DNA from: a virus
Lineage: Duplodnaviria > Heunggongvirae > Uroviricota > Caudoviricetes
Virus record (IMG/VR): IMGVR_UViG_3300042895_002216
Strand: one strand, 5' to 3'
DNA length: 64,000 bases
Shown here: one piece after another, positions 1,159 through 61,174 of the stretch
Numbering within the stretch: the first letter of the stretch is position 1
How the letters are laid out: each line of letters opens with the position of its first letter
Notes under the pieces: generated by a model
Database searches by the model: none
Told to the model about the DNA's origin: nothing
What the model saw: only the letters and a program-made list of their open reading frames with translations
Position numbers and translations under genes: made by a program

Positions 1159-1461
1159 ATGAAGCACATTAAACTATTTGAAGAGATTAACCGAGAAGAC
1201 GAAGACGAATTATCTGCATTGGGCTTTGACACAGACGACCTTAAACTTAGACGATTTGCTCAACAAGTTTCGGACGAGATCCTTGACGAATACGATTATG
1301 CGGTAGACTCAGGCCGAATATCTGCTAGAGAATATTCCCCCGAAGAAATGTACAAGTACGTAAAGGAACTTTGTTCAGACAACGATATCACAGCAGACGA
1401 AGTAATTGCTGACTTTGAATGGCGCTCGATTACTTGGGAACTTGGGCTTGGAAACATATAA
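1159..1461 (+). CDS. leader-family small acidic protein (MKHIKLFEE N-terminus)
   Basis: 100-aa ORF starting MKHIKLFEEINREDEDELSALGFD. The N-terminus is shared with more than 15 paralogous leaders elsewhere in the window. Confidence 0.6.
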   Translation: MKHIKLFEEINREDEDELSALGFDTDDLKLRRFAQQVSDEILDEYDYAVDSGRISAREYSPEEMYKYVKELCSDNDITADEVIADFEWRSITWELGLGNI

Positions 1462-1481
1462 ACCTTATAATTTAACAACTA

Positions 1482-1877
1482 ATGAAAATTGAAGTATCTA
1501 CTGGCGAGATCTTAGATAAACTTTCTATCCTAGAAATTAAGCTTGAGCATATCTTAGACCCAGTTAAACGAAATAACGTGTTACAGGAATATGTAATACT
1601 GGTAGCAGCCGCCGAAGAAATATATGATGCAACTCTTGAAACAGAAGAGCTTAGGGTTCTTTATTTAGATTTACTAAATATTAATAAAACACTATGGAAC
1701 ATCGAAGATCAAATCAGAGAATGCGAACGAGATGAAAGTTTCGGGTCTGATTTTATTGAACTTGCAAGGTCTGTGTACTACACAAACGATGACAGAGCTG
1801 AGGTAAAGAAACAGATTAATGCGTTAACCGGTTCTAAATTAGTTGAAGAAAAATCTTACCAAGACTATCAGAACTAA
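1482..1877 (+). CDS. hypothetical protein
   Basis: 131-aa ORF in tight spacing after the previous gene. Followed by the hairpin terminator at 1936-1966. Confidence 0.5.
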   Translation: MKIEVSTGEILDKLSILEIKLEHILDPVKRNNVLQEYVILVAAAEEIYDATLETEELRVLYLDLLNINKTLWNIEDQIRECERDESFGSDFIELARSVYYTNDDRAEVKKQINALTGSKLVEEKSYQDYQN

Positions 1878-1935
1878 CAAGCGTTTGTGATCGATTAAAT
1901 CAACAGCAACCTTTACGATTTCATTCGTATTGCTA

Positions 1936-1966
1936 ATGGGCCTCAGGAAACTGTAGCCCATTTTTT
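1936..1966 (+). terminator. intrinsic terminator
   Basis: ATGGGC-ctcaggaaactgta-GCCCAT hairpin followed by TTTTTT. Confidence 0.6.
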
Positions 1967-2150
1967 AGTATAATAATCCTAACAGCAAGCCCTCTGCTTA
2001 GCGCTGAGTAAGGATCGAAGACGGGGATAGCCTCTTGACCGTTAGGTTAGAGTACTTCGGTACTCTTTAGTCAATGCGCACTACGCCCACCGAATCGTGT
2101 GTCGGCACAGTTTGTACGTTCTGGGGGTAATACAAAAACGTACATTTTTA

Positions 2151-2250
2151 GTCAGGAGTCCATTGGTTGGAAGCACCTCCCCAAGGTTGAGTAGCGGTAA
2201 GGCCGACTCTTTATGGCAAAGCGGTAACAGGTTCGAATCCTGTCCTGACT
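2151..2250 (+). ncRNA. atypical tRNA-like element, identity unresolved
   Basis: 5' GTCAGGA pairs with 3' TCCTGAC, and a canonical T-arm (CAGGTTCGAATCCTG) is present. About 71 nt of non-cloverleaf sequence lies between them. Acceptor and T-arm are identical to the element at 53354-53472. Upstream (2020-2150) are strong hairpins including a GAGTAC-UUCG-GTACTC tetraloop. Confidence 0.4.
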
Positions 2251-2369
2251 TCTAAAATTAAAAAGTAGAGTATGAATCGTAGACAGGCAATAGCAAAGCT
2301 TATTATTATTTTAGCTAGCGTTACTATATCCGTATGGGCAATCGCTCAGCTCTTAATTGCTGTACAATA

Positions 2370-2801
2370 ATGGAAACACTTCAAATATGGACGGACGGTA
2401 GTTCGTTAGGAAATCCTGGCCCAGGCGGTTGGGGCGTAGTCATGAAATTCCGAGGCAAGACCATGGAATTATCTGGATCTACACCGGCCACGACAAACAA
2501 TCGAATGGAACTCACTGCCGTGGTTGAGGCTCTTGAAACAATTCCCAAGACAAAGTATCCAGTCAAGATCGAGTCAGACTCTAAATACGTGGTTGACTCA
2601 ATCTCTAAGGGTTGGGTTGACAATTGGGCAAGGAAGCCTGATTTCGCAGGTAAAAAGAACGAGGATCTTTGGAGAAGATACTTGATGGTTGCTCCTAACT
2701 TCGACTTGACTATCAGTTGGGTTAAGGGTCATAACGGCCATCCTGAAAACGAGCGTTGCGATTACTTAGCAACGACCGCAGCAAAAAATCAGAAACTTTA
2801 A
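2370..2801 (+). CDS. rnhA: ribonuclease HI
   Basis: WTDGSSLGNPGPGGWG, TNNRMEL, DSKYVV and VKGHNGHPENERCDYLA match the RNase H catalytic motifs (D-E-D-D). Start chosen at METLQIW. Confidence 0.85.
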   Translation: METLQIWTDGSSLGNPGPGGWGVVMKFRGKTMELSGSTPATTNNRMELTAVVEALETIPKTKYPVKIESDSKYVVDSISKGWVDNWARKPDFAGKKNEDLWRRYLMVAPNFDLTISWVKGHNGHPENERCDYLATTAAKNQKL

Positions 2802-2923
2802 ATTATGTTAGATATGGAAAATTACCCAAAATGGTTGAATAACCTAATCTATTTCTTTGCAGGAATAGGCTTCTCTCAAATCTTGATCAGAGTATTAGAT
2901 TGGTACGTAGGATAAATAATCCT

Positions 2924-3505
2924 ATGAAGCATATTAAACTTTTTGAGAACTGGTTTCAGGACGTAGAAGATAACGTTGATCGTAAGAGATTTGCGCCTGA
3001 GCTAGAACCTGAAGAGACTAAACCTGCTGAGACTGAAGAAGACCCGGCTGAACCTGAAGAGGAGAAGCCCGATACTCAGGAAGAACCTAAAGCAGAAGAG
3101 CCTACTGAGCCAGAGACATATTCCGGTTGGTTAAAGACCCAAGCTGGCGTAAGCGAAGTTGTTGAAGCTGAAGAAGGTACAGACAATTCAAATGGTTGGG
3201 TTCGCTTGTCAAATGGAGTATCCATTCAATGGGAAATCGATATGCGAGACTATCCGTTCCTTTCCGTAAGTTATATGCTTGATAAAAAAGTAATTCAGTT
3301 AGCTGATAATCCAGCCGGCGATCTTGCTCGACAATTCTACAAAGAGGGCCGTGAATACATTCCTAGAGAATGGGAGTCTGTTGTAATTAAAATAGGTGCA
3401 GGTGTTCCAGCCTTGATAAAGGATGCAATTGCTTCAAACAAGCGACGAATGAAGGAGCAGGACGAGATCTTATCAGGTCAAATCGTTGCAGCTTTTAGCA
3501 AATAA
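2924..3505 (+). CDS. leader-family protein with acidic Pro/Glu-rich linker
   Basis: Starts MKHIKLFENW, followed by a PEEEKPDTQEEPKAEEPTEPE low-complexity stretch and a C-terminal globular part. ATAAATAAT at 2912-2920. Confidence 0.6.
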   Translation: MKHIKLFENWFQDVEDNVDRKRFAPELEPEETKPAETEEDPAEPEEEKPDTQEEPKAEEPTEPETYSGWLKTQAGVSEVVEAEEGTDNSNGWVRLSNGVSIQWEIDMRDYPFLSVSYMLDKKVIQLADNPAGDLARQFYKEGREYIPREWESVVIKIGAGVPALIKDAIASNKRRMKEQDEILSGQIVAAFSK

Positions 3506-3513
3506 ATAACTCT

Positions 3514-3828
3514 ATGAAGCAGCACGTAAACCTATTCGAAGAATTCGATAACGACCAAGAAGAATTAAAATCCATGGGCTTCCGTAGCAAGCCAGACGGT
3601 TCACCTGACGAAAGATTCGACGAAGCTGTATCAGAGTGGTATCAAGATCCTGAAGTAACTGCAGCAATCGCTCTTCTTAAAAGAAAATCAACTGAAATCC
3701 TTGAAAAATGGATAGATTTTTCAGACGATGAGGATGAAACTGAATTTGACCAACGAGTATCATGGGTATACGACAATGGAGTTGATGACGTAGGCTGGTT
3801 TGAATTCGTAACAATGCTTGATAATTAA
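3514..3828 (+). CDS. leader-family small acidic protein
   Basis: MKQHVNLFEEFDNDQEELKSMGFRS is paralogous to the 1159 ORF N-terminus. ATAAATAAC at 3502-3510. Confidence 0.6.
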   Translation: MKQHVNLFEEFDNDQEELKSMGFRSKPDGSPDERFDEAVSEWYQDPEVTAAIALLKRKSTEILEKWIDFSDDEDETEFDQRVSWVYDNGVDDVGWFEFVTMLDN

Positions 3829-3851
3829 TTACTACTATATAAAATTAAAGC

Positions 3852-3878
3852 AAAGGCTTCCACATGGAAGCCTTTGTT
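3852..3878 (+). terminator. intrinsic terminator
   Basis: AAAGGCTTCC-acat-GGAAGCCTTTG hairpin. It lies inside the annotated 5' end of the 3818 ORF, which argues for the downstream start at 3893. Confidence 0.5.
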
Positions 3879-3892
3879 GGTATAGTAGAATA

Positions 3893-4417
3893 ATGGAATA
3901 CGAACAACTCATTCAAGGCTGTATTGAAAACAATAGAGAATACCAAAAGACCCTGTTCGATAAGTTTGCTGGTAAATTCATGACTATCGCAAAGAGGTAC
4001 ATGAAAGACCCTATGTTAGCCGAAGACGTATTGATGGAAGGATTTTATAAAATATACAAGAATCTTGGGAAATTCAAAGGAGAAGGTTCCTTTGAAGGGT
4101 GGATGAGACGAATCATCGTGAATACTGCGCTTACTAAACTCAAGCAGAACAAGCACGAGTTTAATGAGTGTAACTTAGTAACAGCGGAGGCAGTCAGTAT
4201 AGATCCAACTTACTATGAAACAGCATCAGCCGAAGAGTTAATGTCTCTGATTAGCACTCTTCCGATTGGATATCGTACCGTTTTTAACATGTACGTAATT
4301 GACGGATTTTCCCATAGGGAAATTGCAAAGGAACTTAACATACAAGAAGCCTCAAGTAGATCACAGCTATTTAAGGCAAAGGATTTTTTACAAAAACGAA
4401 TAAACCCAAATACATGA
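3893..4417 (+). CDS. ECF-type sigma-70 family RNA polymerase sigma factor
   Basis: Region-2-like segment (FDKFAGKFMTIAKRYMKDPMLAEDVLMEGFYKIYKNLGKFKGEGSFEGWMRRIIVNTA) and region-4-like HTH (YRTVFNMYVIDGFSHREIAKELNIQEASSRSQLFKAKDFLQKRI). Start set after the terminator. Confidence 0.8.
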   Translation: MEYEQLIQGCIENNREYQKTLFDKFAGKFMTIAKRYMKDPMLAEDVLMEGFYKIYKNLGKFKGEGSFEGWMRRIIVNTALTKLKQNKHEFNECNLVTAEAVSIDPTYYETASAEELMSLISTLPIGYRTVFNMYVIDGFSHREIAKELNIQEASSRSQLFKAKDFLQKRINPNT

Positions 4418-4506
4418 AAAATTGGAAATCAAATGATTGGCTCGGATTCTTGCTTGTTGCAGGATGGTTCGTCTTTATCGCTTGGATTGCTATCAAGTTC
4501 GGATAG
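4414..4506 (+). CDS. 30-aa single-TM peptide, ATGA-coupled to the sigma factor gene
   Basis: MKNWKSNDWLGFLLVAGWFVFIAWIAIKFG. Its ATG overlaps the sigma gene's TGA. Too short for a confident call. Confidence 0.3.
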   Translation: MKNWKSNDWLGFLLVAGWFVFIAWIAIKFG

Positions 4507-4540
4507 CCCACGGATAAATAACCAAAAGAATTAATCTTTA

Positions 4541-4765
4541 ATGCAACATATTAAATTATTCGAACAATTTATAGCAGAATTCACAATGACTGAGCCGATT
4601 GTTAAACCTGCGCCAGTTAAAGAGCCTAGCACTCGACCTGCAACTAGACCCAAACCTAGTCCAATTCCTAGCAAACAACCGTTTAAACAACCTGAGCCAG
4701 CTAAGGCTCAAGCTGAGGATGTAATTGCTCGCCTAAAAAGTCTAGAATCAAATGAAGAGCTTTAA
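4541..4765 (+). CDS. leader-family Pro-rich small protein
   Basis: MQHIKLFEQF followed by a P/K/A-rich repeat region. ATAAATAAC at 4514-4522. Confidence 0.55.
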   Translation: MQHIKLFEQFIAEFTMTEPIVKPAPVKEPSTRPATRPKPSPIPSKQPFKQPEPAKAQAEDVIARLKSLESNEEL

Positions 4766-6110
4766 AACATTCTTAAATGAAGCTGACATTCGTCAGAACC
4801 CAGCAATAACTCCAGAATACTTAGGATCTCTTGATAAACGAGCAGAACAGAGCGCTCGTGAAGTTGAACAGAGACACGGTCGAGATATGGGTAGCCTAAT
4901 GAGAGCTGTCCGTGAAGTACAGATGTTACAACGCGGTAAAGAACGCCAGCTTGAAGAGTTAACTACTTCAGTAATCCTAAGCCAGTACGGTTCAATTCTT
5001 GGAGAAACTGAGTTAGACATTAAGATTCCAAACGATCCTCGTGAAATGAAAGCGAAGATGAAGGAGACTGATGACGACGATCAAGAAGATCAGGACAAAC
5101 CCAATTTCAAAGAGATTGAGGATGAGGATACTAAAACAGCAATCAATAAACGTAAGATCCTAAACATGATCGCTCAAGGCGAAGCCATTAATTCAAAGAA
5201 GATGTTAATGGGCGATGAGAACATGGAAGGTCTAACTCAATTATTTGGAGAGGCTAATGCCCGTAAAATGGTAGAGCTGCTAGTTACGATTACTGATATT
5301 TGTAATGCTAGAGACTGGAGAATACCTGAAGAGGTTGGAGCAAAAATGATTGAGCAAGGAGATTCCCTTGCCGGTATTTCAAAAATTGAATGGAAACCTA
5401 AATCTAAAAAGGATAACGATGATGATCAAGGTCAAGAAGACGGAGAGTCTGAAGAAGAGACAGTTGACGAAACGACTGTTCCTACCTTAGTTATTAGAGG
5501 AATGGACCAAGCAATGTTATTCCATGAATCTATTAAAGCAATTTGGGGACTGATTAATCAAGGAGGTCTTGCTAATCTAGACGATGAGACTATCCGAAAA
5601 GTGTTCATGAATACTGATACTGCCGCTGACGAAGTACAGGATCTTAAACGTGCTAAATTAACTGCAGCTGATCTTAGAGATTTTATCCAATCTTTCGAAG
5701 AAGTATTTGATATTGAAAACGGTAGAGAATACGTATGGGGTAAAATGATTGACTCAACAGTCGTATCTGATTCTGACTTCTTGGACCTAATGAAATTAAT
5801 ATTCACAGCAGCTCCGTTATACAGAACAGTTGGCGAACAGGAACCTCAATACACAGAGTCTGAAATCGCTGCTGCTAAAGAATCTTTTCCTAAAGCCAAA
5901 GCCATAGTAAATAACTTGATCCGTCTAATTAAACAGGAACTTGCTGATTGGGAAGACTCTCAATCTGATTCTAGCTACGATGAGCCTGACTTTACTATGC
6001 CAGCCAACGATAGAGAACTTGATCAAGTTGATATTCAGAACATGATTGATGCAGCTCTAGATAATAGAGACTTCGCTGAAGTTGAAAGGTTAAGTAACTT
6101 ACTTAAATAA
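4752..6110 (+). CDS. leader-family large acidic protein
   Basis: MKSFKTFLNEADIR N-terminus (K-x-F-x-x-F-x-NEA variant of the leader). 452 aa with D/E-rich segments. 14-nt overlap with the upstream gene. Confidence 0.6.
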   Translation: MKSFKTFLNEADIRQNPAITPEYLGSLDKRAEQSAREVEQRHGRDMGSLMRAVREVQMLQRGKERQLEELTTSVILSQYGSILGETELDIKIPNDPREMKAKMKETDDDDQEDQDKPNFKEIEDEDTKTAINKRKILNMIAQGEAINSKKMLMGDENMEGLTQLFGEANARKMVELLVTITDICNARDWRIPEEVGAKMIEQGDSLAGISKIEWKPKSKKDNDDDQGQEDGESEEETVDETTVPTLVIRGMDQAMLFHESIKAIWGLINQGGLANLDDETIRKVFMNTDTAADEVQDLKRAKLTAADLRDFIQSFEEVFDIENGREYVWGKMIDSTVVSDSDFLDLMKLIFTAAPLYRTVGEQEPQYTESEIAAAKESFPKAKAIVNNLIRLIKQELADWEDSQSDSSYDEPDFTMPANDRELDQVDIQNMIDAALDNRDFAEVERLSNLLK

Positions 6111-6113
6111 GTA

Positions 6114-6959
6114 ATGAAGCATCTTAAGATATTTGAAAGTTGGGTCAACGAATCCCTTACTGCTGATCAAATCGCTGATAAAATTCAAATAGCCGTTGCT
6201 GGTTCAGGAACTGCAGAGGGTGATTTAGTATCAGCAATCAAGTCTATTCCCGATGCTGCATCCATGGTTCGTGTAAACAAAGCACTTAAAACCGGGTTCG
6301 ATACAAAGAGCTGGGATTACGCAAGTGTTGGCGATGCAATTACCGGAGAACTTGGATCCTTTGATCAAGATTACTTGGATCAAATCAACACTCACATAAA
6401 GAATATTAGAGCTGAGAAGTACTTAGGATCTTTCGTTGCTCCTCCTCCACCTGAAGATACAGTATTAAAGGTTATTGAGCCTAGGGTAATCCAACATGAA
6501 GGCTACAAACCAAAGAAGTACATAGACTCTAAAGGAAATCCAACAGTCGGTGTAGGATTCAATCTAAACCGCTCTGACTCAACGTCAATGCTTAGGTCAG
6601 TTGGTGCAAATCCAATAAAGATAAAGTCAGGCCAGTCTGCATTAACCGATCAGCAGATTAAAGCTCTTCTGCATACTGATCTTCAAGCCGCAAAGTCTTT
6701 AGCTAAAACTTTAGTATCAGATAATGGGAAAGTCAGCATAGCTAAAGTTTGGCCAAGCTTGCCACAATCAGTACAAGGAGTCTTAATTGAAATGGTATTT
6801 AATTTAGGAGCTAAAGGCCTATCTGAGTTTAACACGTTTCTACTTCACATAGCTTCAAAGAATTTCAAGGCTGCATCCAAAGAGATGTTAAATTCTTCAT
6901 GGGCAAAACAGGTCGGTAATCGAGCAATAACTCTATCTAACATTGTTAAATCTGCATAA
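6114..6959 (+). CDS. leader-family protein with GH24 (T4-lysozyme-like) domain
   Basis: MKHLKIFESWVNE leader. HEGYKPKKYIDSKGNPTVGVGFNL carries the Glu/Asp/Thr catalytic arrangement of T4-type lysozyme. Confidence 0.75.
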   Translation: MKHLKIFESWVNESLTADQIADKIQIAVAGSGTAEGDLVSAIKSIPDAASMVRVNKALKTGFDTKSWDYASVGDAITGELGSFDQDYLDQINTHIKNIRAEKYLGSFVAPPPPEDTVLKVIEPRVIQHEGYKPKKYIDSKGNPTVGVGFNLNRSDSTSMLRSVGANPIKIKSGQSALTDQQIKALLHTDLQAAKSLAKTLVSDNGKVSIAKVWPSLPQSVQGVLIEMVFNLGAKGLSEFNTFLLHIASKNFKAASKEMLNSSWAKQVGNRAITLSNIVKSA

Positions 6960-6980
6960 CTTTAGTATATTATTACTAAG

Positions 6981-7403
6981 ATGATAGCAGAAAACCGAAA
7001 AGCCCGACACGAATACACATTTTTAGAGACATGGACCGCTGGGATCTCCTTAACTGGATCAGAGGTCAAGTCAATTAAGGCGGGTAACCTTGACTTTACT
7101 GGATCCTGGTGCGAACTTCGGTCAGGTGAATGCTTCTGTCGAGAACTGTACATAAAAGAATCAACCTCAGCATACAGTCACCAAGGTAAACGAGAGAGGA
7201 AGCTACTCTTAACTAAAAAGGAACTAAAGAAACTAAATAAACTGATGGACAGGGGCCTCACAATCGTTCCAGTAAAGATCTTCGTTAACTCGTCAGGTTT
7301 AATTAAGATTGCGATTGCTCTAGCCAAAGGAAAGAAGGATTGGGATAAGCGACATGTTATTAAAGAACGAGATCTCAGCCGAGCTTTAACCTCTGAATAC
7401 TAG
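6981..7403 (+). CDS. smpB: SsrA-binding protein SmpB
   Basis: NRKARHEYTFLETWTAGISLTGSEVKSIKAGNLDF ... RKLLLTKKELKKL ... IALAKGKKDWDKRHVIKERD aligns motif-by-motif with bacterial SmpB. The TAGTATATTAT motif at 6963-6973 sits immediately upstream, so the mRNA is probably leaderless. Confidence 0.85.
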   Translation: MIAENRKARHEYTFLETWTAGISLTGSEVKSIKAGNLDFTGSWCELRSGECFCRELYIKESTSAYSHQGKRERKLLLTKKELKKLNKLMDRGLTIVPVKIFVNSSGLIKIAIALAKGKKDWDKRHVIKERDLSRALTSEY

Positions 7404-7432
7404 AATAAATAACCCTGAAATAATTACATTAA

Positions 7433-8266
7433 ATGCCAAAGTACATTAAATTATTTGAAGCTTTCCAAAACGAAGCCCAAGCATATAAGTTCGATCCAAC
7501 TAAATCAGTCTTAACTGGAGCTGCAGTATACAGTGCTGGAACATCATACGCTAAATTTACACTAGGTCGAATCTATATTGCGACTGAAGATAATGAATCC
7601 ACCAAAAAAGCACCAGGAAACGTATTAGTCCTTTTAACGGCTAAGAACAAGGACGTTGAGAAAAAACTTACTGATCTTGGTGGAGTGGCTGCGGCTCTTC
7701 AAGCTAGCGAAATTAACGAACCGCCTGCAGCTGGAGGTGGAGTCTACAAGTATCAAGCATCCTACATATTTAATTTAACTGATCCAGTTGCAGGAGATCA
7801 AATTCTTGGTAAAATTGCAGCTGCTATTAACACAGCACCGACTGGTTCAACTGGAACAAGCGGTACAGCTGGAACTGCTGGAAGCAAGGGAGATTACGCA
7901 GAAGGTTTCTTTGGAAAAGATATTATGACAGCTTTTAGATCGCATGTCGCCGATGTTACTGGAGTTGCATATCAAGCAGCAACCAGTATTCCAGCGTATC
8001 AAGCATCTCTTCAAAACAAGGAACTAAACAAGAGACTTAATTCGGATGCTGAATTTTTAAAGTTAATGAAAGAGGTTGAAGAGCAAGCTAAGTTAACAAA
8101 CGTTGTTGACTTTACTACTGGAAAAACGAAGGATGGAAAGATCGATGCAAAATATCTTGAAATAAGAAAAAAGGTTGCAGCTAGAACTGAAGTAATTAAA
8201 AGTCAGTTAATGAATGCTGGTTCTACCGGTACATCAGGTACGGCTGGTACCGCAGGTAAAATCTAA
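7433..8266 (+). CDS. leader-family protein with Gly-X-Y (collagen-like) repeats
   Basis: MPKYIKLFEAF leader. GSTGTSGTAGTAG occurs twice. ATAAATAAC at 7405-7413. Confidence 0.6.
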   Translation: MPKYIKLFEAFQNEAQAYKFDPTKSVLTGAAVYSAGTSYAKFTLGRIYIATEDNESTKKAPGNVLVLLTAKNKDVEKKLTDLGGVAAALQASEINEPPAAGGGVYKYQASYIFNLTDPVAGDQILGKIAAAINTAPTGSTGTSGTAGTAGSKGDYAEGFFGKDIMTAFRSHVADVTGVAYQAATSIPAYQASLQNKELNKRLNSDAEFLKLMKEVEEQAKLTNVVDFTTGKTKDGKIDAKYLEIRKKVAARTEVIKSQLMNAGSTGTSGTAGTAGKI

Positions 8267-8276
8267 TTAATTGTTA

Positions 8277-9416
8277 ATGAAGCACTTACAACTGTTTGAA
8301 AACTGGAAAGACGAATTATCTACAAGCCAATCTCAATTGGCTGAGCTCGATGCTCTGCGCGATTTCGCAATTATATCAGCAGACGATTACGCTCAACAAG
8401 GAAAGGCTCTTCTGAGCAAGATCGCTGGAATTAATCGTAAACTTCTTAAAGACGCTGATGCGACTCATCCTCGATGGTCAGCTGAGTGGTTAGCTGAAAT
8501 TTCTGAGTACCCTTCTCTTACTTGGTTAACTGATTCGCTAGCTTCGCCTGAATTACAGTCACTATTGGCAAAAGGATTTTATCCATGTTCAAGTAATATT
8601 CAACTGGGAAACCGTACCTTAATGCTATCTAAAAATCCTAACTATTCTCCATTAACTGATACAGCAATTGGATTCTTTTCTTCAATTAATGTAGTACGTC
8701 GAATCGTGCAGAAGCCTAATCCTAAGATGACTTACATGGATCAAAAGCTTAAAGAACTAGATGGAGGTCTTTCTCCAGTAGAGTTCATGAAGCAGGCAAG
8801 TCTATGGGTTCAGGAGAATTTAGTTCTAGAAGTAGACTACCTTCCAAGTAAAAGAGCTTATGCAAGTGATGTAAAGAAAGAGAATCAAGTCGAATTAATG
8901 TATTCAACTCTTGAGACTAAATTTGCAGAGCGCGGCGTTAATTTAGATAGAACACAAATTAAAGCTCTTCCAATTCGAGGTCTGTATCACGGGTCAGTTG
9001 AGATGGCAAAATTAATAAAGCTGCTACAAAAGCAAACCGATCAGTCAAAACCTCTTGAGCTGCCGTTAAACGAGTGGAGTAAATACACTCAGTCAGAAAT
9101 AGATGCAATGTCTAATCCTAATTTAGTATGGACCGTTTCAGCAAACGGCCAGCTCCGATTTGGGTTAGGCTACCCTTACGACAACAATATCCCAACCGAT
9201 ATTAGCAGATTAAATATCAAGCTTGAGTCTACGACTATTCTTGATTACGTATCGGCTGCTAGTACTCAGGTTACGAATCAGTTATTAACTAAATTATCTC
9301 AAGCTGGACTGCAATTCATACAGAAGCTTGAGTGTCCAACTGAAGAGATTGACTTGGACATGTACCCAACTATTCAAGTTAATGAAATCAAAAATATCAG
9401 AGACCAACGTCGATGA
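8277..9416 (+). CDS. leader-family protein
   Basis: MKHLQLFENWKDEL leader. 380 aa. Confidence 0.6.
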   Translation: MKHLQLFENWKDELSTSQSQLAELDALRDFAIISADDYAQQGKALLSKIAGINRKLLKDADATHPRWSAEWLAEISEYPSLTWLTDSLASPELQSLLAKGFYPCSSNIQLGNRTLMLSKNPNYSPLTDTAIGFFSSINVVRRIVQKPNPKMTYMDQKLKELDGGLSPVEFMKQASLWVQENLVLEVDYLPSKRAYASDVKKENQVELMYSTLETKFAERGVNLDRTQIKALPIRGLYHGSVEMAKLIKLLQKQTDQSKPLELPLNEWSKYTQSEIDAMSNPNLVWTVSANGQLRFGLGYPYDNNIPTDISRLNIKLESTTILDYVSAASTQVTNQLLTKLSQAGLQFIQKLECPTEEIDLDMYPTIQVNEIKNIRDQRR

Positions 9417-10849: not shown

Positions 10850-10873
10850 GACTTATTTAGTATAATAGTCTTA

Positions 10874-11488
10874 ATGATAGACAATTTACAACTTATTAAA
10901 CCCCTTTTAAACTTTTCAGAGAAGGGAGACTTCTATATGCTGTACGTGTTTAAACGTAAGAAGGATCAGCCGGAGGGAGAGAGAGACAATCACCAGTCAG
11001 TTAGAACAATCAAAACCTATTGTATTGAAAGCCTTGACCATTTAGATAGAAGATGGGAAGAGATCTTGCAGTTATGTGAGATGTTTAAGGCTCGTGCATA
11101 CATTCATGTACAAAAACAGAATCATTTTGACGTTAGCTTAAACATGATGGTTGCTCTTGCTCAAAGAATTCAAGACGGCAACACCAATCAAAAGGGTCTG
11201 TTCGACTCAGTCGTCGGTCAAATCAAAACTCAAGAAAAGAGATGGATTGTTGATATCGATACTAAAGATGAGATCACAGTTCATAGGATCGTTCATATAA
11301 TCGATTCAAATATAAAGCCTGAGGGCTCAAAGATTATTACATGTATTCCAACCAAGAACGGTTATCACCTGATCACCAAGCGTTTTGATGTATTGGAGTT
11401 TACAAAATACATGAAACTTCAAGGAGATGTTCCAGATATTCAAAAGAAGAACCCTACTTTATTATATTATCCAAATAGTTTAGATTAA
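10874..11488 (+). CDS. hypothetical protein
   Basis: 204-aa ORF. The TAGTATAATAG motif at 10858-10868 ends about 6 nt before the ATG, suggesting a leaderless mRNA. Confidence 0.5.
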   Translation: MIDNLQLIKPLLNFSEKGDFYMLYVFKRKKDQPEGERDNHQSVRTIKTYCIESLDHLDRRWEEILQLCEMFKARAYIHVQKQNHFDVSLNMMVALAQRIQDGNTNQKGLFDSVVGQIKTQEKRWIVDIDTKDEITVHRIVHIIDSNIKPEGSKIITCIPTKNGYHLITKRFDVLEFTKYMKLQGDVPDIQKKNPTLLYYPNSLD

Positions 11489-11490
11489 TT

Positions 11491-11688
11491 ATGCAAAATC
11501 AAATCATTCAAGACGTATGTCTTTATTTCTTATTCGGTATTTGTTGGATGATACTCGTTGAGTACATCGACTCCAAACAACCTGAGAAACAGTTAACTGT
11601 AATTGCTAGAATAGTAATTATCGTAACGTGGCCGCTAGCCGCATTCATTGGGATCCTAACCCTAATTCGAAAATCATTAAACAATTAA
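11491..11688 (+). CDS. small membrane protein
   Basis: 65 aa with two hydrophobic helices. Confidence 0.4.
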   Translation: MQNQIIQDVCLYFLFGICWMILVEYIDSKQPEKQLTVIARIVIIVTWPLAAFIGILTLIRKSLNN

Positions 11689-11690
11689 CA

Positions 11691-11900: not shown

Positions 11901-11916
11901 ATAACTAGAAAGCACT

Positions 11917-12723: not shown

Positions 12724-12747
12724 GAATTTGTCTAATAAATAACTTAG

Positions 12748-21103: not shown

Positions 21104-21104
21104 C

Positions 21105-54878: not shown

Positions 54879-55259
54879 ATGAGAATAGCAGTAATTGCAC
54901 ACGATAATAAAAAGGCGGACATGGTGGCATTCATCATGAAGCGTCTTGATTTTTTTAAGCAGCACGAGGTTGTTGCAACTGGTACGACCGGTACTCACAT
55001 TGAGCATGCAGGTCTTGAGGTCGACCGAATGAAGTCTGGACCGCAAGGCGGAGACGCTCAGATCGCAGCAGAGTTAGTCAACGGTAAAATAGATGGAGTT
55101 ATCTTCTTTATTGATCCATTAACTGCACATCCGCATGAAGTTGACGTTCAAATGTTACTTAGATTGTGTAATGTGTATAATATTCCTATTGCAACGAACT
55201 ATTCGACTGCAAGCTTGTTGATACAGGCAGTTTCTTCTAAAAATAACAACGATAAATGA
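54879..55259 (+). CDS. mgsA: methylglyoxal synthase
   Basis: RIAVIAHDNKK, ATGTTG, SGPQGGDAQIAAELVNGKIDGVIFFIDPLTAHPHEVDVQMLLRLCNVYNIPIATN align residue-by-residue with bacterial MgsA, including the catalytic His/Asp positions. Confidence 0.75.
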   Translation: MRIAVIAHDNKKADMVAFIMKRLDFFKQHEVVATGTTGTHIEHAGLEVDRMKSGPQGGDAQIAAELVNGKIDGVIFFIDPLTAHPHEVDVQMLLRLCNVYNIPIATNYSTASLLIQAVSSKNNNDK

Positions 55260-56992
55260 GTAAACTCACACGGGACTTTGAAGAGTTCATAAAAGGTAAA
55301 CATCCGAGCATTGAGTTTAGACCTCAGCAAAAAGAAGCGATAATCGATATTATTTCAGCATACGAAGAAGACCATAATGGAATTTATCTACTTGATGCGC
55401 CGACTGGATCAGGCAAGTCAGTTATCGCAATGTTATTTGCTGATTTTCTTGCATTTAAGGGAAATCGCGGCTATATCTTAGCATCTGACCTCTCTCTTCA
55501 TGAACAATACGTCAAAGATTTTAAAAAGTTGCAGGTATGGAATTGGGGTAATATAAAAGGTGTTGATAACTACCGATGCGTTGTGAACGACGAGAAATTT
55601 TCAGTCGGTGAGTGCAAGAGTAAAGGAACCTCTTATGAAAAGGCTGAATCTCTTCCGTGTTTCAAACAATGTGGCTACTTGACCTCAAGAAAAAAGGCAA
55701 TCAAGTCGCCAGTCTCTCTGTTAACCTATCCATACGCCCTGATTCAACGAAATTACGTTGAGCAAAATCAGCAAGGCAACGGTAAGGGCTCCCCATTTCC
55801 ACAAAGAGATTTTGTAGTATGCGATGAGGCCCATAAGCTACTTGATATTGTACAGAGCCATTTCAGTCCAATCGTTTCGCATGAAATTGTTAAAAAGACT
55901 GAGAGCTTAATTGAAAGCACCGGCGATATTGGCCAAAAGATACCACAAGTGGACACTGAACGATTAGCAAAAGTGATTGATATGATTTACGAACAGGAGG
56001 ATCATGGCAACTTGCTTAAATTACTTAAGGAGGTTACTAGACTCTTGAGCATTGCAGTTCAGGCAACCTCTTCGCTTAGAGAAAATGCATCAATTGAATT
56101 TTTAGAGGGCAGCATTCCATCCGAATGGTTGGCTGTCTTTGGCATGGCGGACTGGTGTAAGGACGTTCACTGTAAACTAGAAGACTATTGTAAAATCATT
56201 GAACAAGTAGGTCTTGAGAAGCTCGTAAAGAATCCTGGCGAAAAGTCAATCACATTCAACTGTATCGATGAGTACTACCTATTACAGAAACACTTCTTTA
56301 CGAAATTTGGATTCAAGTTACTGATGACTGCTACAATGGGCAGTCCCAGCGATTTCATGAGAAATCACGGAATCAAGAAGGCTAAGTACTTTAAGATTGA
56401 AAGTCATTTCAATTGGGAGAAGTCACCTATCATTTTCTATCCAGGTAAAAAAATGTCAACCAGATTCCTACAAGAGAATCTACAATGGGCAATTGATTCA
56501 GTAACCAGAATAGTCAGGGAGAACTCTGAGCACTCCGGAATCATTCATTCAGGTTCTTATGAATTGAATACTAAGATCTGGACAGGTCTTCCCAAAGATG
56601 TTAAGAAACGCATTGTTCTCTATAAAGGATCTGAAGAGAAAGAGATCGCGCTAAAGATAATGAAGAAGAAGAAGGCAATGGTACTGATGGGTCCATCTAT
56701 TCTTGAAGGCTTGAACATGGTTGACGACCAGAGTAGATTCCAAATCTTCTTAAAGGTTCCGTACCCTCATCTCGGCGACAAGTACGTTGCTGCTAAATTG
56801 GAATACAGCCAGCAATGGTACAATTGGAAGACCTCAATCGCTGTCCTGCAAGGAGTAGGCCGCTCAATACGTACACCTGAGGATTGGGCGGTGACTCATC
56901 TACTTGATGGATGTTTCGCAGACCTAATGAAATCCGCAGGTGATCAATTCCCACCTGACTTCAAAGCGAGATTGCGAATAGAGTATAAATAA
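55256..56992 (+). CDS. SF2 DEAH-box helicase, DinG/Rad3-like
   Basis: Walker A LLDAPTGSGKS. DEAH box VVCDEAHKLLD. C-terminal motif VI LQGVGRSIRT. Confidence 0.7.
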   Translation: MSKLTRDFEEFIKGKHPSIEFRPQQKEAIIDIISAYEEDHNGIYLLDAPTGSGKSVIAMLFADFLAFKGNRGYILASDLSLHEQYVKDFKKLQVWNWGNIKGVDNYRCVVNDEKFSVGECKSKGTSYEKAESLPCFKQCGYLTSRKKAIKSPVSLLTYPYALIQRNYVEQNQQGNGKGSPFPQRDFVVCDEAHKLLDIVQSHFSPIVSHEIVKKTESLIESTGDIGQKIPQVDTERLAKVIDMIYEQEDHGNLLKLLKEVTRLLSIAVQATSSLRENASIEFLEGSIPSEWLAVFGMADWCKDVHCKLEDYCKIIEQVGLEKLVKNPGEKSITFNCIDEYYLLQKHFFTKFGFKLLMTATMGSPSDFMRNHGIKKAKYFKIESHFNWEKSPIIFYPGKKMSTRFLQENLQWAIDSVTRIVRENSEHSGIIHSGSYELNTKIWTGLPKDVKKRIVLYKGSEEKEIALKIMKKKKAMVLMGPSILEGLNMVDDQSRFQIFLKVPYPHLGDKYVAAKLEYSQQWYNWKTSIAVLQGVGRSIRTPEDWAVTHLLDGCFADLMKSAGDQFPPDFKARLRIEYK

Positions 56993-56996: not shown

Positions 56997-57581
56997 ATGA
57001 AACACCTTAAACTATACGAAGAATTTGATCTTGACAGATTCCTAGACAATCCAGAAAAGGAATTAGCTGATGACAATTCACCAGAGATCAATGTAGGAAA
57101 TTACGTTGACTCATACCGAGGTAAAGGCCAAGTGCTTGATATCGATAGCGATTTTGCAAAAGTTGAATTACATAACTCAAAAGGCAATATTGTTAAAGTT
57201 CCAGTTTTTGCTCTAACTAAAATATCTCACGAAGACCTAACTTCAGCCAAGGTCGGAGATTCTCAAGCTGAACTTGCGGAGCTAGTGAGTCAGGCCAGAC
57301 AGTACAATGATTACCTTGACTCAACTGAAGATTATGATAACGAAGATGAAGAGGATGGAGTTTACTCAGCAAGTCAGGTAAATTTCGATACCCTACTAGC
57401 ATATATTCAAGATACAACGATCGATGTTATCTCTATTAAAAATAACGATAGTGCATACGATACCTATTCAGAATATCACGAACTGATTAATTTAGTCGGC
57501 TCAATCGCTGGAGCAATTCAGAGAGCAAGACCGGACTTAATGGATGAAGTTGATGCAGCACTAGACAATTTCCCAGGATAA
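56997..57581 (+). CDS. leader-family acidic protein
   Basis: MKHLKLYEEF leader. TATAAATAAC at 56984-56993. Confidence 0.6.
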   Translation: MKHLKLYEEFDLDRFLDNPEKELADDNSPEINVGNYVDSYRGKGQVLDIDSDFAKVELHNSKGNIVKVPVFALTKISHEDLTSAKVGDSQAELAELVSQARQYNDYLDSTEDYDNEDEEDGVYSASQVNFDTLLAYIQDTTIDVISIKNNDSAYDTYSEYHELINLVGSIAGAIQRARPDLMDEVDAALDNFPG

Positions 57582-58912
57582 TGAGACTTAAACGATTTAC
57601 ACAATTCGTTAATGAAAATACTGATGATGCTGAAGAATTAGCAGCATTAGGTTTTAATTCAAAGATTGACACGGATGAAATTCAAGGATTAATGGCCGAA
57701 TACAACCCAGAGGAGAAGACCGACACGACATTAGGTTTCGATTTGGGATTTGATATGACAGCTGATGATTTAGGACTTGATCCAGAAAGAGCAGAGGCTG
57801 CTGAATTAGATAGCGTGTTCCTTGTTCAGTACTATGTTGATTTCGACTTTGAGACAATGAAATCTAAAGTACAAGTGGCAGTCTTAAATTCTGGGATTGA
57901 TTTTGACGGTGCAGGTAATGCGTATGAAGTTGATTTTAAACTGGATTCAGAAAATCACGATTCTCAAGGAATCGCTGATGAGTTAACTCAGATTTTGCAG
58001 CGAATTGAATACGAAGGCATGTTTGTAGACATGGCAGTCGATATAGTAAATGACATAATCGATAGACGTCTTGGAGAAGTATCAGAAAAGAAGAAACTTA
58101 AATGGCATGATTCTGATGAGCCTAACACAAAAGGAAAATTCATAATTGAGAACTTATCTGATGAAGAAGCTGCAGAACTAAGAGCAATGGGTTTTGGTGG
58201 AGTTGACACTGATGCAATCGCAGAACTAGTCAATGGAGCAACTGCAGAAGATCAAATCGTTATTGTTTCAGGCCAGTTCAATCAATCTATAGATGATTAC
58301 GGAATAGATTCATCCGAATATCCGGATATAGAAAGAGACGTATGGACTGATTTTGAAGTCAGAATAAACTTTATCGATGAAACTGTTAAGTCGTCAGTTA
58401 GTGTCGCACAAAAAGATATCGGACTTTACGAAGATGCTGAACTTGAAGACTATGAATGGTCTGACCTATTCCAAAATGGAGATCCAGTTTCAATGAAGTC
58501 TAATGAGATAGCTGAAGATATTGAACTCTTTATGAGTGCCGTAACTGGTTTCGAAGACTCGCTTGGAATGTACGACAAAATTCAAGATCTTTTAAATAAG
58601 GCAATTGAGGAACAGTATCACAGATGGGATGACGAAGAAGATGATGAAGCTGATGAAGATGAAATTTCAGAAAAGAAAAAACTTAAATGGCACGATTCTG
58701 ATGCACCTGATGCAAATGGAAAATTCAGAGACCTTGGAGTTAATAAATTAGCGGATTGGTTAATCAGAACAAGAGGTGGTAACATGCAAAAGATTACTGG
58801 ATCGCTAAATCAACAAATTAATTTTAACAAGCGAAAAAATCCAAGTTATGCCAAGAAAATGGAGTCGACTCGGGAAGCAGTTAAAAGAAAATTAGCAAAA
58901 AGAAAAGAATAA
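57581..58912 (+). CDS. leader-family large acidic protein
   Basis: MRLKRFTQFVNEN leader. 443 aa, extremely D/E-rich with an internal duplicated EKKKLKWHDSD motif. Confidence 0.6.
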   Translation: MRLKRFTQFVNENTDDAEELAALGFNSKIDTDEIQGLMAEYNPEEKTDTTLGFDLGFDMTADDLGLDPERAEAAELDSVFLVQYYVDFDFETMKSKVQVAVLNSGIDFDGAGNAYEVDFKLDSENHDSQGIADELTQILQRIEYEGMFVDMAVDIVNDIIDRRLGEVSEKKKLKWHDSDEPNTKGKFIIENLSDEEAAELRAMGFGGVDTDAIAELVNGATAEDQIVIVSGQFNQSIDDYGIDSSEYPDIERDVWTDFEVRINFIDETVKSSVSVAQKDIGLYEDAELEDYEWSDLFQNGDPVSMKSNEIAEDIELFMSAVTGFEDSLGMYDKIQDLLNKAIEEQYHRWDDEEDDEADEDEISEKKKLKWHDSDAPDANGKFRDLGVNKLADWLIRTRGGNMQKITGSLNQQINFNKRKNPSYAKKMESTREAVKRKLAKRKE

Positions 58913-59598: not shown

Positions 59599-59599
59599 T

Positions 59600-59673
59600 A
59601 GTCCAGTAGCTCAGTGGAATAGAGCAACCGCCTTCTAAGCGGTAGGTCGCAGGTTCGAGTCCTGCCTGGATTA
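59600..59673 (+). tRNA. tRNA-Arg (TCT)
   Basis: Anticodon arm ACCGC-CTTCTAA-GCGGT. T-arm GCAGGTTCGAGTCCTGC. Confidence 0.8.
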
Positions 59674-59697
59674 CAAATTATTTAGTACAATATAGCT

Positions 59698-59928
59698 ATG
59701 GAAGAAATAACAAACGCAGAAAGAGAATTCATGTTCTATAAGATTGGAACAGCTGGATCGTTTCACACAGCCTTGATTCAGACAATTATGAAGGCTGATA
59801 TTCGTAATCAGGCTAAGCTTGCACTAGGTTTTCCCGAAGATGTTCAAGTGGTTCAACGTTTTCAAAACGAAAGTGGCTACTGGGAAGGTCTGCAAGAGCG
59901 CTGGAAAGCTGCACATAACCGAAACTAA
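59698..59928 (+). CDS. hypothetical protein
   Basis: 76-aa ORF between tRNA genes. Confidence 0.4.
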   Translation: MEEITNAEREFMFYKIGTAGSFHTALIQTIMKADIRNQAKLALGFPEDVQVVQRFQNESGYWEGLQERWKAAHNRN

Positions 59929-59937
59929 TTAGTACCT

Positions 59938-60010
59938 GCCCCGGTAGTTCAATGGATCAGAACACACGGCTACGGACCGTGAGATGGGGGTTCGAATCCC
60001 TCCTGGGGTA
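59938..60010 (+). tRNA. tRNA-Arg (ACG)
   Basis: Anticodon arm CACGG-CTACGGA-CCGTG. T-arm GGGGGTTCGAATCCCTC. Confidence 0.8.
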
Positions 60011-60025
60011 CTTAACTTAATCAAC

Positions 60026-60238
60026 ATGGCAAATTTAAAAAAGGGTAATATCATAGTCTTTTCTAGAAAGGACAAACCTAATGAAACTATAATTAAGGGC
60101 TCAAGCGATCCAATTAATGGAATGGTCACTACCGACAAGCAGGAATACTCAGTAGATTTCCTTAATCGATGGGTCCATTTTGGTTTCTGTAGAGTATTTA
60201 AACCTGCAGATCTGCCTTCAGAATACGTAGGGAAGTAG
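60026..60238 (+). CDS. hypothetical protein
   Basis: Start trimmed to MANLKKG so it does not overlap tRNA-Arg. Confidence 0.4.
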   Translation: MANLKKGNIIVFSRKDKPNETIIKGSSDPINGMVTTDKQEYSVDFLNRWVHFGFCRVFKPADLPSEYVGK

Positions 60239-60277
60239 TCGAGTCGTATAAATAAACTTCAAATAGAATGATTAATT

Positions 60278-61174
60278 TTGAAGTTACTTAAATTTACACA
60301 ATTCATAACTGAAGCCCGAATCTCTTCTCACGGAGAGGGTCGTATAGATCAACGAATCTATAATCTAGAGTCAATTAACTTACCTAAGCCAGCGAGACAA
60401 TTTATTCGAGAAGCTGGATTTGAAATAAACGAAGTCTACTCTCAACTCATTGATGCTATTAAATCTGAATTTAAAAAGAGCCAAGACCATATTGAGAGAA
60501 CTCAATTTCCATCAGGCCATAAAGCCCTACCAGTAGTTGCACCATTCTTAAAGATAGAGGGTACCTCTTATCCAGTAACAATGTCTGTAAAATCATTTAG
60601 TGGAGAGATTGAAAAAATTCACATCGGCGAGCGAGTTTTCGCCTATATTTCAGATGATGTTCTTACAACAATCAAGGTGCTCCCTCACAGAATGTCTCAT
60701 AAAGATATTCAAATGGATTTGGAAAATCATCTTTCTAGAAAGGGTAAAACTGGATCAGTTACCGTATATGAATTACCAGAAGAGACAGTAAATAGCGTAT
60801 TTGAACTTACAGAAGACGGTCAAGTAATCCCAGAAAGAAGAGCTGCCTATACTCCAGCAGTTATTAGCGGAGAACAACAATACTCAGTCGCAGCTGGTAG
60901 AAAAATTAAGGTGTTTATTCCATTCCTAAAAGAGTTCACTGAATGCACAATTGATGGTGTCCTAAACCGTGATTCTTTTAGAGAAGACCGATTCTTGAAA
61001 TTGGGAATTATTTTACCGGATGGCAGAAAGATTGCCAAAACTCTAAATCCTGGAGATACAGTCGAGCTCCCAATTGGAGAAAATGGGGACTGGGTAAAGA
61101 CAAAAATCGCAGATTCACTTTACGTATACGATAAGAGAACTGCTGAACCTATTTCACTTAAAGCAATCGCTTAA
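60278..61174 (+). CDS. leader-family protein (apparent TTG start)
   Basis: KLLKFTQFITEAR leader begins at a TTG codon. TATAAATAAAC at 60247-60257. Confidence 0.5.
   Translation: MKLLKFTQFITEARISSHGEGRIDQRIYNLESINLPKPARQFIREAGFEINEVYSQLIDAIKSEFKKSQDHIERTQFPSGHKALPVVAPFLKIEGTSYPVTMSVKSFSGEIEKIHIGERVFAYISDDVLTTIKVLPHRMSHKDIQMDLENHLSRKGKTGSVTVYELPEETVNSVFELTEDGQVIPERRAAYTPAVISGEQQYSVAAGRKIKVFIPFLKEFTECTIDGVLNRDSFREDRFLKLGIILPDGRKIAKTLNPGDTVELPIGENGDWVKTKIADSLYVYDKRTAEPISLKAIA

Follow-up and report, generated by a model that had tools for sequence, protein, structure and literature searches.

Why should at least fifteen proteins that are otherwise unrelated, all encoded within 64 kb of viral DNA, begin with the same short leader? 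The question is raised by a stretch of 64,000 nucleotides (nt) from a tailed virus (Caudoviricetes; IMG/VR record IMGVR_UViG_3300042895_002216), hereafter the window, for which an earlier note had described this N-terminal leader, or tag, and had read it as a T4-like signal for capsid targeting and cleavage on many virion proteins. We consider it likely, with a probability of roughly 0.7, that the leader works as a T4-type capsid-targeting propeptide, which would be cleaved by a protease and would be carried by a large set of packaged and ejected proteins. This reading is supported, indirectly, by the layout of the leader, its Glu boundary, the T4-type head module of the lineage, the position of one leader gene between portal and protease, and a common promoter motif, whereas two elements of the earlier proposal, a ClpP-like enzyme as the protease and an additional conservation at the DNA level, did not hold.

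In order to define the leader set, a hidden Markov model (HMM) was built from the 17 window leaders plus metagenomic examples. Translation of the 17 listed starts yielded the leaders that had been described, and among 518 ATG starts with at least 40 amino acids (aa) downstream, on both strands, exactly 16 ATG-initiated open reading frames (ORFs) scored at least 8 bits, and nothing else. When TTG and GTG starts were added (1449 candidates, both strands), the TTG-initiated gene at 60278 was recovered too, with 15.2 bits, and the sole further match was a helicase at 55256, with 6.5 bits. The downstream sequences are indeed unrelated, as no meaningful pairwise similarity was left after removal of the first 14 residues (best BLASTP E-value 0.03). 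Since the scan finds the listed starts and the proteins minus the leader are unrelated to one another, the list of leader genes, with 15 strong and 2 weak cases, is complete and precise. The strong cases account for 16% of the roughly 95 ORFs and for 4,024 of some 18,700 residues encoded, with cargo lengths in the window from 74 to 478 aa; a simple regular expression for the leader matched 14 of the 95 window N-termini and only 3 internal sites in 18.6k residues.

The consensus of the tag is M-K-H-[ILV]-K-L-[FY]-E-x-[FW]-[ILV]-N-E, that is, two aromatics three apart and then aliphatic-x-Glu. The first aromatic position is occupied by F or Y in all 15 strong leaders. As had been claimed, [LIV]-x-E occurs at least once in the first 14 residues of every one of them, and in 9 of them aliphatic-x-Glu directly follows the second aromatic. 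A degenerate DNA pattern that fixed only residues 1-8 (M-K-H-x-K-x-F-E) was matched by at least 120 IMG/VR loci, often with 3-6 copies within a few kb, and 136 distinct leaders were recovered in this way. At the positions left free by the pattern, these metagenomic leaders have F, Y or W at position 10 (93%), I, L or V at 11 (56%), N at 12 (39%) and E at 13 (62%; E or D in 74%), with no conservation beyond position 13. The two variants distinguished in the earlier note (MKHIKLFE..., and ...FTQFVNE) are, on this comparison, the halves of one 13-residue unit, MKHIKLFEQF[ILV]NE.

A sample picked by cargo and not by leader was provided by the nucleotidyltransferase encoded at 12748, which has 1696 homologues; among the 120 matches listed, all the full-length ones have a leader-like N-terminus. 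In this independent sample, 55 diverse orthologues keep M, K, an aromatic (98%), [LIV] (100%) and Glu (96%; 53/55), followed by G, S or N, and the leaders differ between lineages (MKHLKPYNQFLNE, MKLFKFTEFINE, MKSYVQPRSAWIAE, MILNFSDFLLE). The AlphaFold2 model of the 12748 protein has a predicted local distance difference test (pLDDT) score of 84.8 overall and of less than 50 for exactly residues 1-13; as the rest of the fold is confident, the leader is predicted to be a flexible add-on outside the cargo domain. The cargo fold itself gave only weak nucleotidyltransferase matches (E about 0.009), along with weak similarity to DrrA, ANT and LinB. By inspection, no h-region of a Sec or lipoprotein signal peptide was found in the leader, in which charged (K2, K5, E8, E13) and hydrophobic residues alternate.

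In T4, the genetics of the IPIII tag MKTYQEFIAE assigned targeting to residues 4 and 7 (Y and F) and processing to residues 8 and 10 (I and E), with Asp at position 10 blocking processing while targeting is kept (PMC9026906, citing Mullaney & Black 1996). The N-termini in the T4 record are MKTYQEFIAE for IPII and IPIII, MKTFKEFTSTTTPVSTITE for IPI and MLKEQLIAE for gp22, each cut before a following Ala, and MAKINELLRE, cut before Ser, for gp24. A pattern fixed a priori from the T4 genetics, [FYW]..[FYW][ILV].E, matches 9 of the 95 window N-termini against 0.18 expected from its internal rate, and in the strict T4 register, ^MK.[FY]..F[ILV].E[AS], the protein encoded at 4752 is the only match in the window. 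We would place the likeness of the leader to the T4 tag at the level of layout and pattern only.

The window contains a ClpP gene at 41139-41804 (+), which had been put forward as a possible prohead protease. Its product scores 254 bits over its full length with the NCBIfam model of the cellular ClpP PRK14514 and 70 bits with Clp_rel_HeadMat, for which the cut-off is 120; no portal or capsid gene is found among its called neighbours, the upstream one being a PA14 protein. Because of the full-length cellular score, the head-maturation score below the cut-off and the lack of head-gene context, this enzyme is a cellular-type ClpP and not the prohead protease, and a different candidate was found in relatives of the phage.

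These relatives are huge. The topoisomerase II large subunit of the window is nearest to those of LR745206, LR756502, LR756500 and LR756504 (48-56% amino-acid identity), uncultured huge phages of 462-642 kb, and more distant from those of a 735-kb genome and of Lak phages; furthermore, the window phage recurs across many metagenomes, on contigs of up to 0.2-1 Mb. Given these topoisomerase II relatives and the large metagenomic contigs, the window belongs to the genome of a huge, uncultivated phage. The large ORFs of leader-bearing IMG/VR loci encode a T4-type portal (Gp20, 222 bits), UvsW, a T4-type terminase, a gp23 capsid protein and a Peptidase_S77 protease, and on one contig a leader gene and the protease are found together, at different places (L071 and L246). 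The best phage-collection relatives of the S77 protease from a leader-bearing contig again belong to the huge phages nearest to the window (LR756500, LR756501/503, LR756504, LR756502 and LR745206) and to Lak phages. The protease profile of this clade matches T4 gp21 with a probability of 96.8% (E = 2.4e-10) and keeps GELxHP and SSRG, and the N-terminus of the enzyme retains an LLIxE site, to be compared with LLIE-9 of T4 (PMC9026906). The prohead protease of the lineage is the S77 enzyme.

In this clade the protease is fused to a scaffold-like domain (19929-22052 in locus L125, which is LR745206; 10976-12931 in locus L064) in which about 12 tandem YSEY[LI]AEN(L/V)DKNI repeats are combined with a poly-acidic stretch and a C-terminal domain that is conserved. 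The YSEY[LI]AEN repeats are themselves [LI]-x-E sites, and such a repeat-rich fusion would be expected of a scaffold that is chopped at [LI]-x-E. Many database copies of the fusion are truncated, perhaps owing to assemblies that break at the repeats. The capsid protein of the clade can be aligned with gp23, and the alignment takes in KWxPxxE, a motif of the N-terminal domain. As a separate observation, the major capsid proteins of two relatives (L220:25025-26677 (-) and L030:2746-4419) begin with M(I/H)..LINEAE, at the very N-terminus of the gp23-like Delta domain, which resembles the last five residues of the leader (F-I-N-E-A).

A leader was also found within the head module itself. In 38 of 78 IMG/VR head-module loci, an ORF of about 115 aa between portal and protease begins with the leader, and 42 of the 58 leader matches in these loci (1.1 Mb) sit in the 1 kb just upstream of the protease. 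The ORF consists of the leader, a linker of variable length (with indels), a small domain and an acidic tail. In T4, the portal-protease interval holds the genes of the prohead core proteins gp67 and gp68. Since gp21-family protease, scaffold and gp23-type capsid protein are present in all the relatives examined (huge phages, Lak phages and IMG/VR contigs), we infer by phylogenetic bracketing that the window phage has the S77 protease as well.

The extent of the tag was assessed in the complete genome of LR745206 (634,780 bp, 909 ORFs), with N-termini at internal Met residues as control. A profile search of this kind had been proposed in the earlier note; here, 73 of the 909 N-termini (8.0%) scored at least 8 bits against 1.3 expected, and 102 scored at least 5 bits against 3.8 expected. 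The leader genes of LR745206 are spread genome-wide, with a lineage consensus of MK[YH][LI]Kx[FY][EN][ES]. From IMG/VR loci, 216 complete leader ORFs (median 165 aa) fell into 163 unrelated clusters, and more than 90% of 150 cluster representatives have no Pfam domain; the remaining ones include GNAT acetyltransferases, a Pol-beta-type enzyme, proteins with ankyrin repeats and leucine-rich repeats (LRR), a 5'-nucleotidase, a cytidylyltransferase, a lysozyme and a Zn protease. The recognisable cargo of the window comprises a lysozyme domain (6114), the nucleotidyltransferase (12748) and an Acb1-like 2H phosphoesterase (20106). No matches were obtained by tblastn of the leader proteins 9413 and 56997 against phages, nor with a tandem consensus leader against the phage collection, a query too short for significance. 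The earlier note had described many leader proteins as extremely acidic, with DNA mimicry or a counter-ion role in mind. An isoelectric point (pI) below 4.6 was indeed calculated for 7 of the 15 strong cases, but 4 of the 15 have a pI above 9 and the difference from the other genes is not significant (p = 0.07). The recognisable cargo domains point to enzymes and effectors instead, and it is speculative to see the acidic members as DNA mimics or counter-ions.

Expression of the leader genes together with head genes is suggested by the promoter-like motif ATAAATAA (example copy at 2912-2919, +), of which 19 copies were found in the window against 7.0 expected, nearly all of them shortly ahead of a gene start. 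Leader genes are preceded by further copies at 3502, 4514, 7405, 12735, 34818, 35394, 56985, 60248 and 62162. The claim that such a motif precedes most leader genes stood in 9 of the 15 strong cases, where, as at 62189, the motif is 4-22 nt away from the start; the remaining leader genes lie in tandem behind another leader gene. Within 60 nt upstream, the motif was found for 9 of the 15 strong leader genes and for 6 of the 78 other genes (Fisher p = 1.7e-5). In LR745206 a counterpart motif, AATATATA, precedes the portal, protease and capsid genes and lies ahead of 36 of the 72 leader genes, compared with 198 of the 837 other genes (p = 4e-6); across IMG/VR loci the enrichment is weaker (odds ratio 1.8). 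An ECF-type (extracytoplasmic function) sigma-70 factor is encoded among the leader genes of the window (3893-4417, +), with a Bacteroidetes subfamily model in its best three matches, and it is a candidate for a phage-encoded sigma factor acting on ATAAATAA promoters.

In the mechanism that we propose, the tagged proteins would be made together with the products of the head genes, and the short tag, unstructured or amphipathic, would bind the scaffolding core of the assembling prohead through its two aromatics three apart (F/Y7 and F/W10), so that the tagged protein would be enclosed in the prohead. The gp21-family (Peptidase_S77) protease, scaffold-fused in this clade, would cut after the Glu of [ILV]-x-E at position 13, or at 12 or 10 in shorter variants, and the mature protein, freed inside the head, would stay with the DNA and be ejected into the host at infection. 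The tag probably labels many and varied proteins destined for the head and for injection into the host; it is a portable module, and the tagged set is best read as a packaged effector and ejection proteome.

Several points weigh against this reading. Homology to the T4 tag was not detected at the profile level, as the leader HMM gives IPII and IPIII only 2.0-2.2 bits. Six of the 15 strong window leaders have no [ILV]-x-E at positions 11-13 and only the upstream L-F/Y-E, three of the six having Asp at 13, and the tag of LR745206 has a degenerate second half (MKYLKKFNES). The head module and protease of the window phage itself were not found in IMG/VR, in genome and metagenome scans with the protease profile or in a protein search: the closest IMG/VR relative was 33% identical, the scans gave other clades, and the protein search gave mostly fragments, with the looked-up candidate P0097 coming from another sample. 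The cleavage site of the capsid protein falls in a region that could not be aligned to T4 gp23, and searches for homology between the portal-proximal leader ORF and T4 gp67 or gp68 found none. The motif ATAAATAA is also ahead of two tRNA clusters, so that 'late' is a putative label for the promoter. There is no cultured relative in the phage collection, and the scale (15-17 of 95 genes here, 73-102 of 909 in the relative) is far beyond that of documented packaged-protein sets.

The scale is one reason to weigh the possibility, which we hold to be unlikely, that the tag is an address for a target other than the capsid, either a degron or processing signal for the phage ClpP system or a label for another complex or compartment built by the phage. 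A tag on 8-17% of the genes is a large number for capsid cargo, a full-length ClpP is encoded in the window, and some of the cargo, the 2H phosphoesterase and the nucleotidyltransferase for instance, would do its work just as well after synthesis inside the cell; the leader-like N-terminus of the helicase at 55256 also fits an address of this sort. However, the most conserved part of the tag, aromatic-[ILV]-x-Glu-small, is a gp21-type cleavage context and not a known Clp N-degron, and no ClpX or adaptor is seen beside ClpP in the window. The tag also co-occurs with S77 head modules, marks the portal-protease ORF and, in relatives, is found on genes with the promoter motif of the head genes, all of which argues against such an address.

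Alternatively, the tag could target the prohead but stay on the protein, or be cut only in the subset with [ILV]-x-E, in which case the rest would be tethered components of the core, shell or inner body and not ejected effectors. The leaders without [ILV]-x-E at 11-13, those with Asp at 13, which in T4 at position 10 allows targeting without processing (PMC9026906), and the degenerate second half in LR745206 would all be accommodated in this way. We regard it as quite improbable: all leaders keep at least one [LIV]-x-E, in the form of L-F-E or L-Y-E at positions 6-8, and the nucleotidyltransferase family retains the terminal Glu in 96% of the orthologues.

The earlier note had also seen conservation of the first codons beyond what protein-level selection needs and had attributed it to module shuffling or a 5' mRNA element. 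In keeping with this, the conserved start could be a feature of the mRNA or of translation (an A/T-rich 5' element for a host without Shine-Dalgarno sequences) or a DNA-level recombination cassette, as no Shine-Dalgarno sequence is visible upstream, codons 2-8 are A/T-rich and the promoter-like motif is only 4-22 nt from the start codon. In the window leaders, however, 75 of the 151 codon pairs for a common residue are identical, where codon usage predicts 71.5, so that synonymous sites follow the codon-usage prediction, and the amino-acid pattern of the tag holds across genomes of 25-42% G+C (25%, 29% and about 39% among them). These two results indicate that selection acts on the leader peptide. 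Moreover, the conservation is specific to residues (aromatic, aliphatic, Glu) and stops at a fixed residue, and the tail-collar-domain gene at 693 and the PA14 gene at 40240 are preceded by the promoter motif and have no leader. We judge a nucleic-acid element to be very improbable.

Finally, that the proteins are diverged paralogues of one family, with the N-terminus as the last recognisable remnant and no address function, is hardly credible, since, in spite of the tandem clusters of leader genes (e.g. 1159-13893) that duplications would give, their cargo of widely different length has unrelated known folds (lysozyme, Pol-beta nucleotidyltransferase, 2H phosphoesterase) and includes a 2H enzyme whose orthologue in Maribacter phage Molly has no tag, and the leader ORFs of IMG/VR loci form 163 unrelated clusters.

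If the leader is a capsid address, the first 13 residues would flag, in huge phages that are uncultivated and have most genes without known function, the 8-17% of proteins that are delivered with the DNA. Hundreds of anonymous ORFs would become defined candidates for host-takeover or anti-defence effectors (nucleotidyltransferases, the Acb1-like phosphoesterase, GNAT, ankyrin and LRR proteins), the T4 capsid-targeting principle would extend from a few T-even internal proteins to a very distant and much larger group, the logic of targeting and cleavage by aromatic-x-x-aromatic-aliphatic-x-Glu would be ancient, and new tags would be available for loading foreign proteins into phage capsids. A bolder version, to which we give slightly less than even odds, is that one portable tag identifies the whole set of packaged and ejected proteins across a global superclade of T4-related large and huge phages (kin of the 635-735-kb genomes and Lak phages), each capsid being loaded with dozens to about 100 mostly unknown effectors; if true, this would be by far the largest known arsenal of virion-delivered proteins, readable from sequence in uncultivated phages.

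The leader genes are all on the plus strand. The first tandem cluster opens with an acidic protein of 100 aa (1159-1461; MKHIKLFEEINRE; pI 4.2; HMM 28.2 bits), a 193-aa protein with a Pro/Glu-rich linker and a copy of ATAAATAA 4 nt upstream of its start (2924-3505; MKHIKLFENWFQD; 28.9 bits), an acidic one of 104 aa (3514-3828; MKQHVNLFEEFDND; 23.3 bits) and a Pro-rich one of 74 aa that matches the T4-derived core pattern (4541-4765; MQHIKLFEQFIAE; 30.5 bits). The 452-aa protein at 4752-6110 (12.0 bits) has a 10-residue leader in exact T4 register, MKSFKTFLNE followed by Ala. It is followed by the 281-aa protein with a C-terminal phage-lysozyme domain (6114-6959; MKHLKIFESWVNE, then Ser; 30.9 bits), which matches Pfam Phage_lysozyme (1e-9) and the PHROG endolysin and 'internal virion lysozyme motif' families, by proteins of 277 aa (7433-8266; MPKYIKLFEAFQNE; 28.7 bits) and 379 aa (8277-9416; MKHLQLFENWKDE; 26.7 bits), and by a 478-aa protein (9413-10849; MKHIQLYESWIFE, then Asn; 26.9 bits) for which no family or PDB relative was found. 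The nucleotidyltransferase (381 aa; 12748-13893; MKHLKPYNQFLNE, then Gly; 27.2 bits) is of the Pol-beta type with a C-terminal beta domain. Further on, two neighbours match the core pattern, an acidic protein of 183 aa (34843-35394; MKLKRFSQFVKE, then Ser; 18.0 bits) and a basic, helical one of 187 aa (35421-35984; MKLKRFTQFVNE, then Ala; 26.3 bits). A 194-aa protein (56997-57581; MKHLKLYEEFDLD; 27.4 bits) has orthologues in two IMG/VR loci (L082 and L096) and is followed by an acidic one of 443 aa, again with the core pattern (57581-58912; MRLKRFTQFVNE, then Asn; 20.5 bits), and the 298-aa product of the TTG-initiated gene (60278-61174; 15.2 bits with TTG allowed) starts with (M)KLLKFTQFITE, then Ala, with ATAAATAA 22 nt upstream.

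The two weak cases differ in their outcome. The 2H phosphoesterase (183 aa; 20106-20657; Pfam 2_5_RNA_ligase2 and Acb1, 2e-5) has the diverged leader MLKSFSQFVTGLFE, with 8.8 bits. Its orthologues in related phages have the canonical MKHIKLFEEF or MKLKKYKQFIKE at the same place, whereas the orthologue in Maribacter phage Molly, a negative control with no leaders in the 45-kb stretch scanned, starts directly with the domain and has no N-terminal extension; on this comparison, we take the 20106 leader to be a true, diverged one. The very acidic 98-aa protein at 62189-62485 (MHNNKILSFEEFVQQ), with ATAAATAA 19 nt upstream, is still a weak case at 8.8 bits. The T4 Acb1 protein 57B was considered as a further tag-bearing protein and rejected, as its start, MMEFKDF, resembles that of IPI but aligns with the first strand of the domain and not with an extension.

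Two further observations concern sequences that resemble or adjoin the leader. The DinG/ResIII-type helicase (55256-56992, +) starts with MSKLTRDFEEFIKG, which is leader-like with Gly in the position of the Glu, and this start is kept in relatives (MTKLQTEFEQFIKG in the L082 version); this could be coincidence or a tag that escapes cleavage. Another short motif, [DE]EL.[AS][LM]GF, lies directly after the leader, at residues ~15-25, in the proteins encoded at 1159, 3514 and 57581 (EDELSALGF, QEELKSMGF and AEELAALGF, respectively), with similar DEEL..L.G motifs after the leader in IMG/VR locus L005, and may be a second targeting or cleavage element.

The window as a whole has 37-48% G+C, codes most genes on the plus strand and contains 26 tRNA genes; no Shine-Dalgarno sequences are visible upstream of its genes, and no near-identical DNA was found among 50,697 phage records, a tRNA match aside. 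A match to the Rfam tRNA-Sec family (RF01852; 59162-59244, +; 47.9 bits against a threshold of 47 bits) is placed between tRNA-Cys and tRNA-His in the second tRNA cluster, where ARAGORN calls no tRNA; it could represent a tRNA whose variable arm is long, or else a genuine selenocysteine or suppressor tRNA. Within the leader-gene cluster, a homologue of the trans-translation factor SmpB (Pfam SmpB; 6981-7403, +) is encoded, and no transfer-messenger RNA (tmRNA) gene was found in the window by ARAGORN or Rfam. A minus-strand block (21282-29537) contains at least 6 ORFs with classical N-terminal signal peptides, e.g. MKKIIFILFALVTCALSTGVYAQ, whose products may be secreted or reside in the envelope; it is adjoined by a peptidoglycan-hydrolase-like gene (29556-30380), which is preceded by ATAAATAA. 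The plus strand also encodes a flotillin-like membrane scaffold protein (47947-49380) and an ATP-dependent RNA ligase (50773-51975). Huge-phage contigs were found deposited in bacterial and archaeal metagenome-assembled genomes (L133, L134, L127 and others), one of 606.7 kb as SAR324 and one of 425 kb as Pacearchaeota, with Dehalococcoidales and Planctomycetia as further labels, and these look like binning errors.

With respect to known systems, internal or ejection proteins are also found in P22 (gp7, gp16 and gp20), T7 (core proteins with a lytic transglycosylase) and P1 (DarA and Hdf). These are packaged in the head and delivered with the DNA, and some have a cell-wall hydrolase or anti-defence activity, which may be compared with the lysozyme domain of the 6114 protein. 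Unlike the tag-marked set, they enter by specific protein-protein assembly pathways, and we know of no cleavable N-terminal tag common to dozens of unrelated proteins among them.

Closer to the lineage studied here are phiKZ, 201phi2-1 and SPN3US, giant phages with many internal or ejected head proteins, whose propeptides are cut after Glu by a protease related to T4 gp21 (PMC5694885). Their cleavage motif is A/S/G-x-E, with a small residue at P3 (PMC5694885), whereas the P3 residue of the leader is I, L or V, as in T4, and this in 100% of the nucleotidyltransferase orthologues, which do not conform to the phiKZ/SPN3US type. Furthermore, their propeptides are mostly longer than 100 residues and have neither a common sequence nor a single short tag, in contrast to the short leader with its common sequence, and in SPN3US only 8 of about 50 head proteins are processed (PMC5694885).

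Documented cases of short capsid tags are confined to T-even phages (PMC9026906, PMC3012670). The searchable literature gave no description of the leader; in it, literal leader strings return only the T4 tag, and the literature on huge, jumbo and Lak phages, including a jumbo-phage review, never mentions capsid targeting or such a leader. The T4 tag, like the leader, lies at the extreme N-terminus of otherwise unrelated proteins, takes up 10-20 residues and combines an M-K start, two aromatics three apart and, as in 9 of the 15 strong leaders, a directly following aliphatic-x-Glu and small residue. T4 shares with this lineage the gp20 portal, the gp21-family protease, the scaffold and the gp23 capsid protein, and its packaged proteins likewise include host-directed enzymes, such as the Alt ADP-ribosyltransferase. 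The leader differs from the T4 tag in its usual length of 12-13 residues (MKHIKLFEQFINE) instead of 10, with an extra basic/hydrophobic turn and a near-invariant Glu at position 8; unlike in T4, the protease of this lineage is fused to the scaffold, and the hosts are probably Bacteroidota and others instead of enterobacteria. The T4 tag was mapped by genetics (PMC9026906), and the leader is described here from sequences. The largest difference is one of scale, with 15-17 genes in 64 kb and 73-102 in the 635-kb relative against a handful in T4, and what is new, in the best-supported form of the proposal, is a T4-like tag on a far larger and more diverse set of cargo in very distant large and huge phages.

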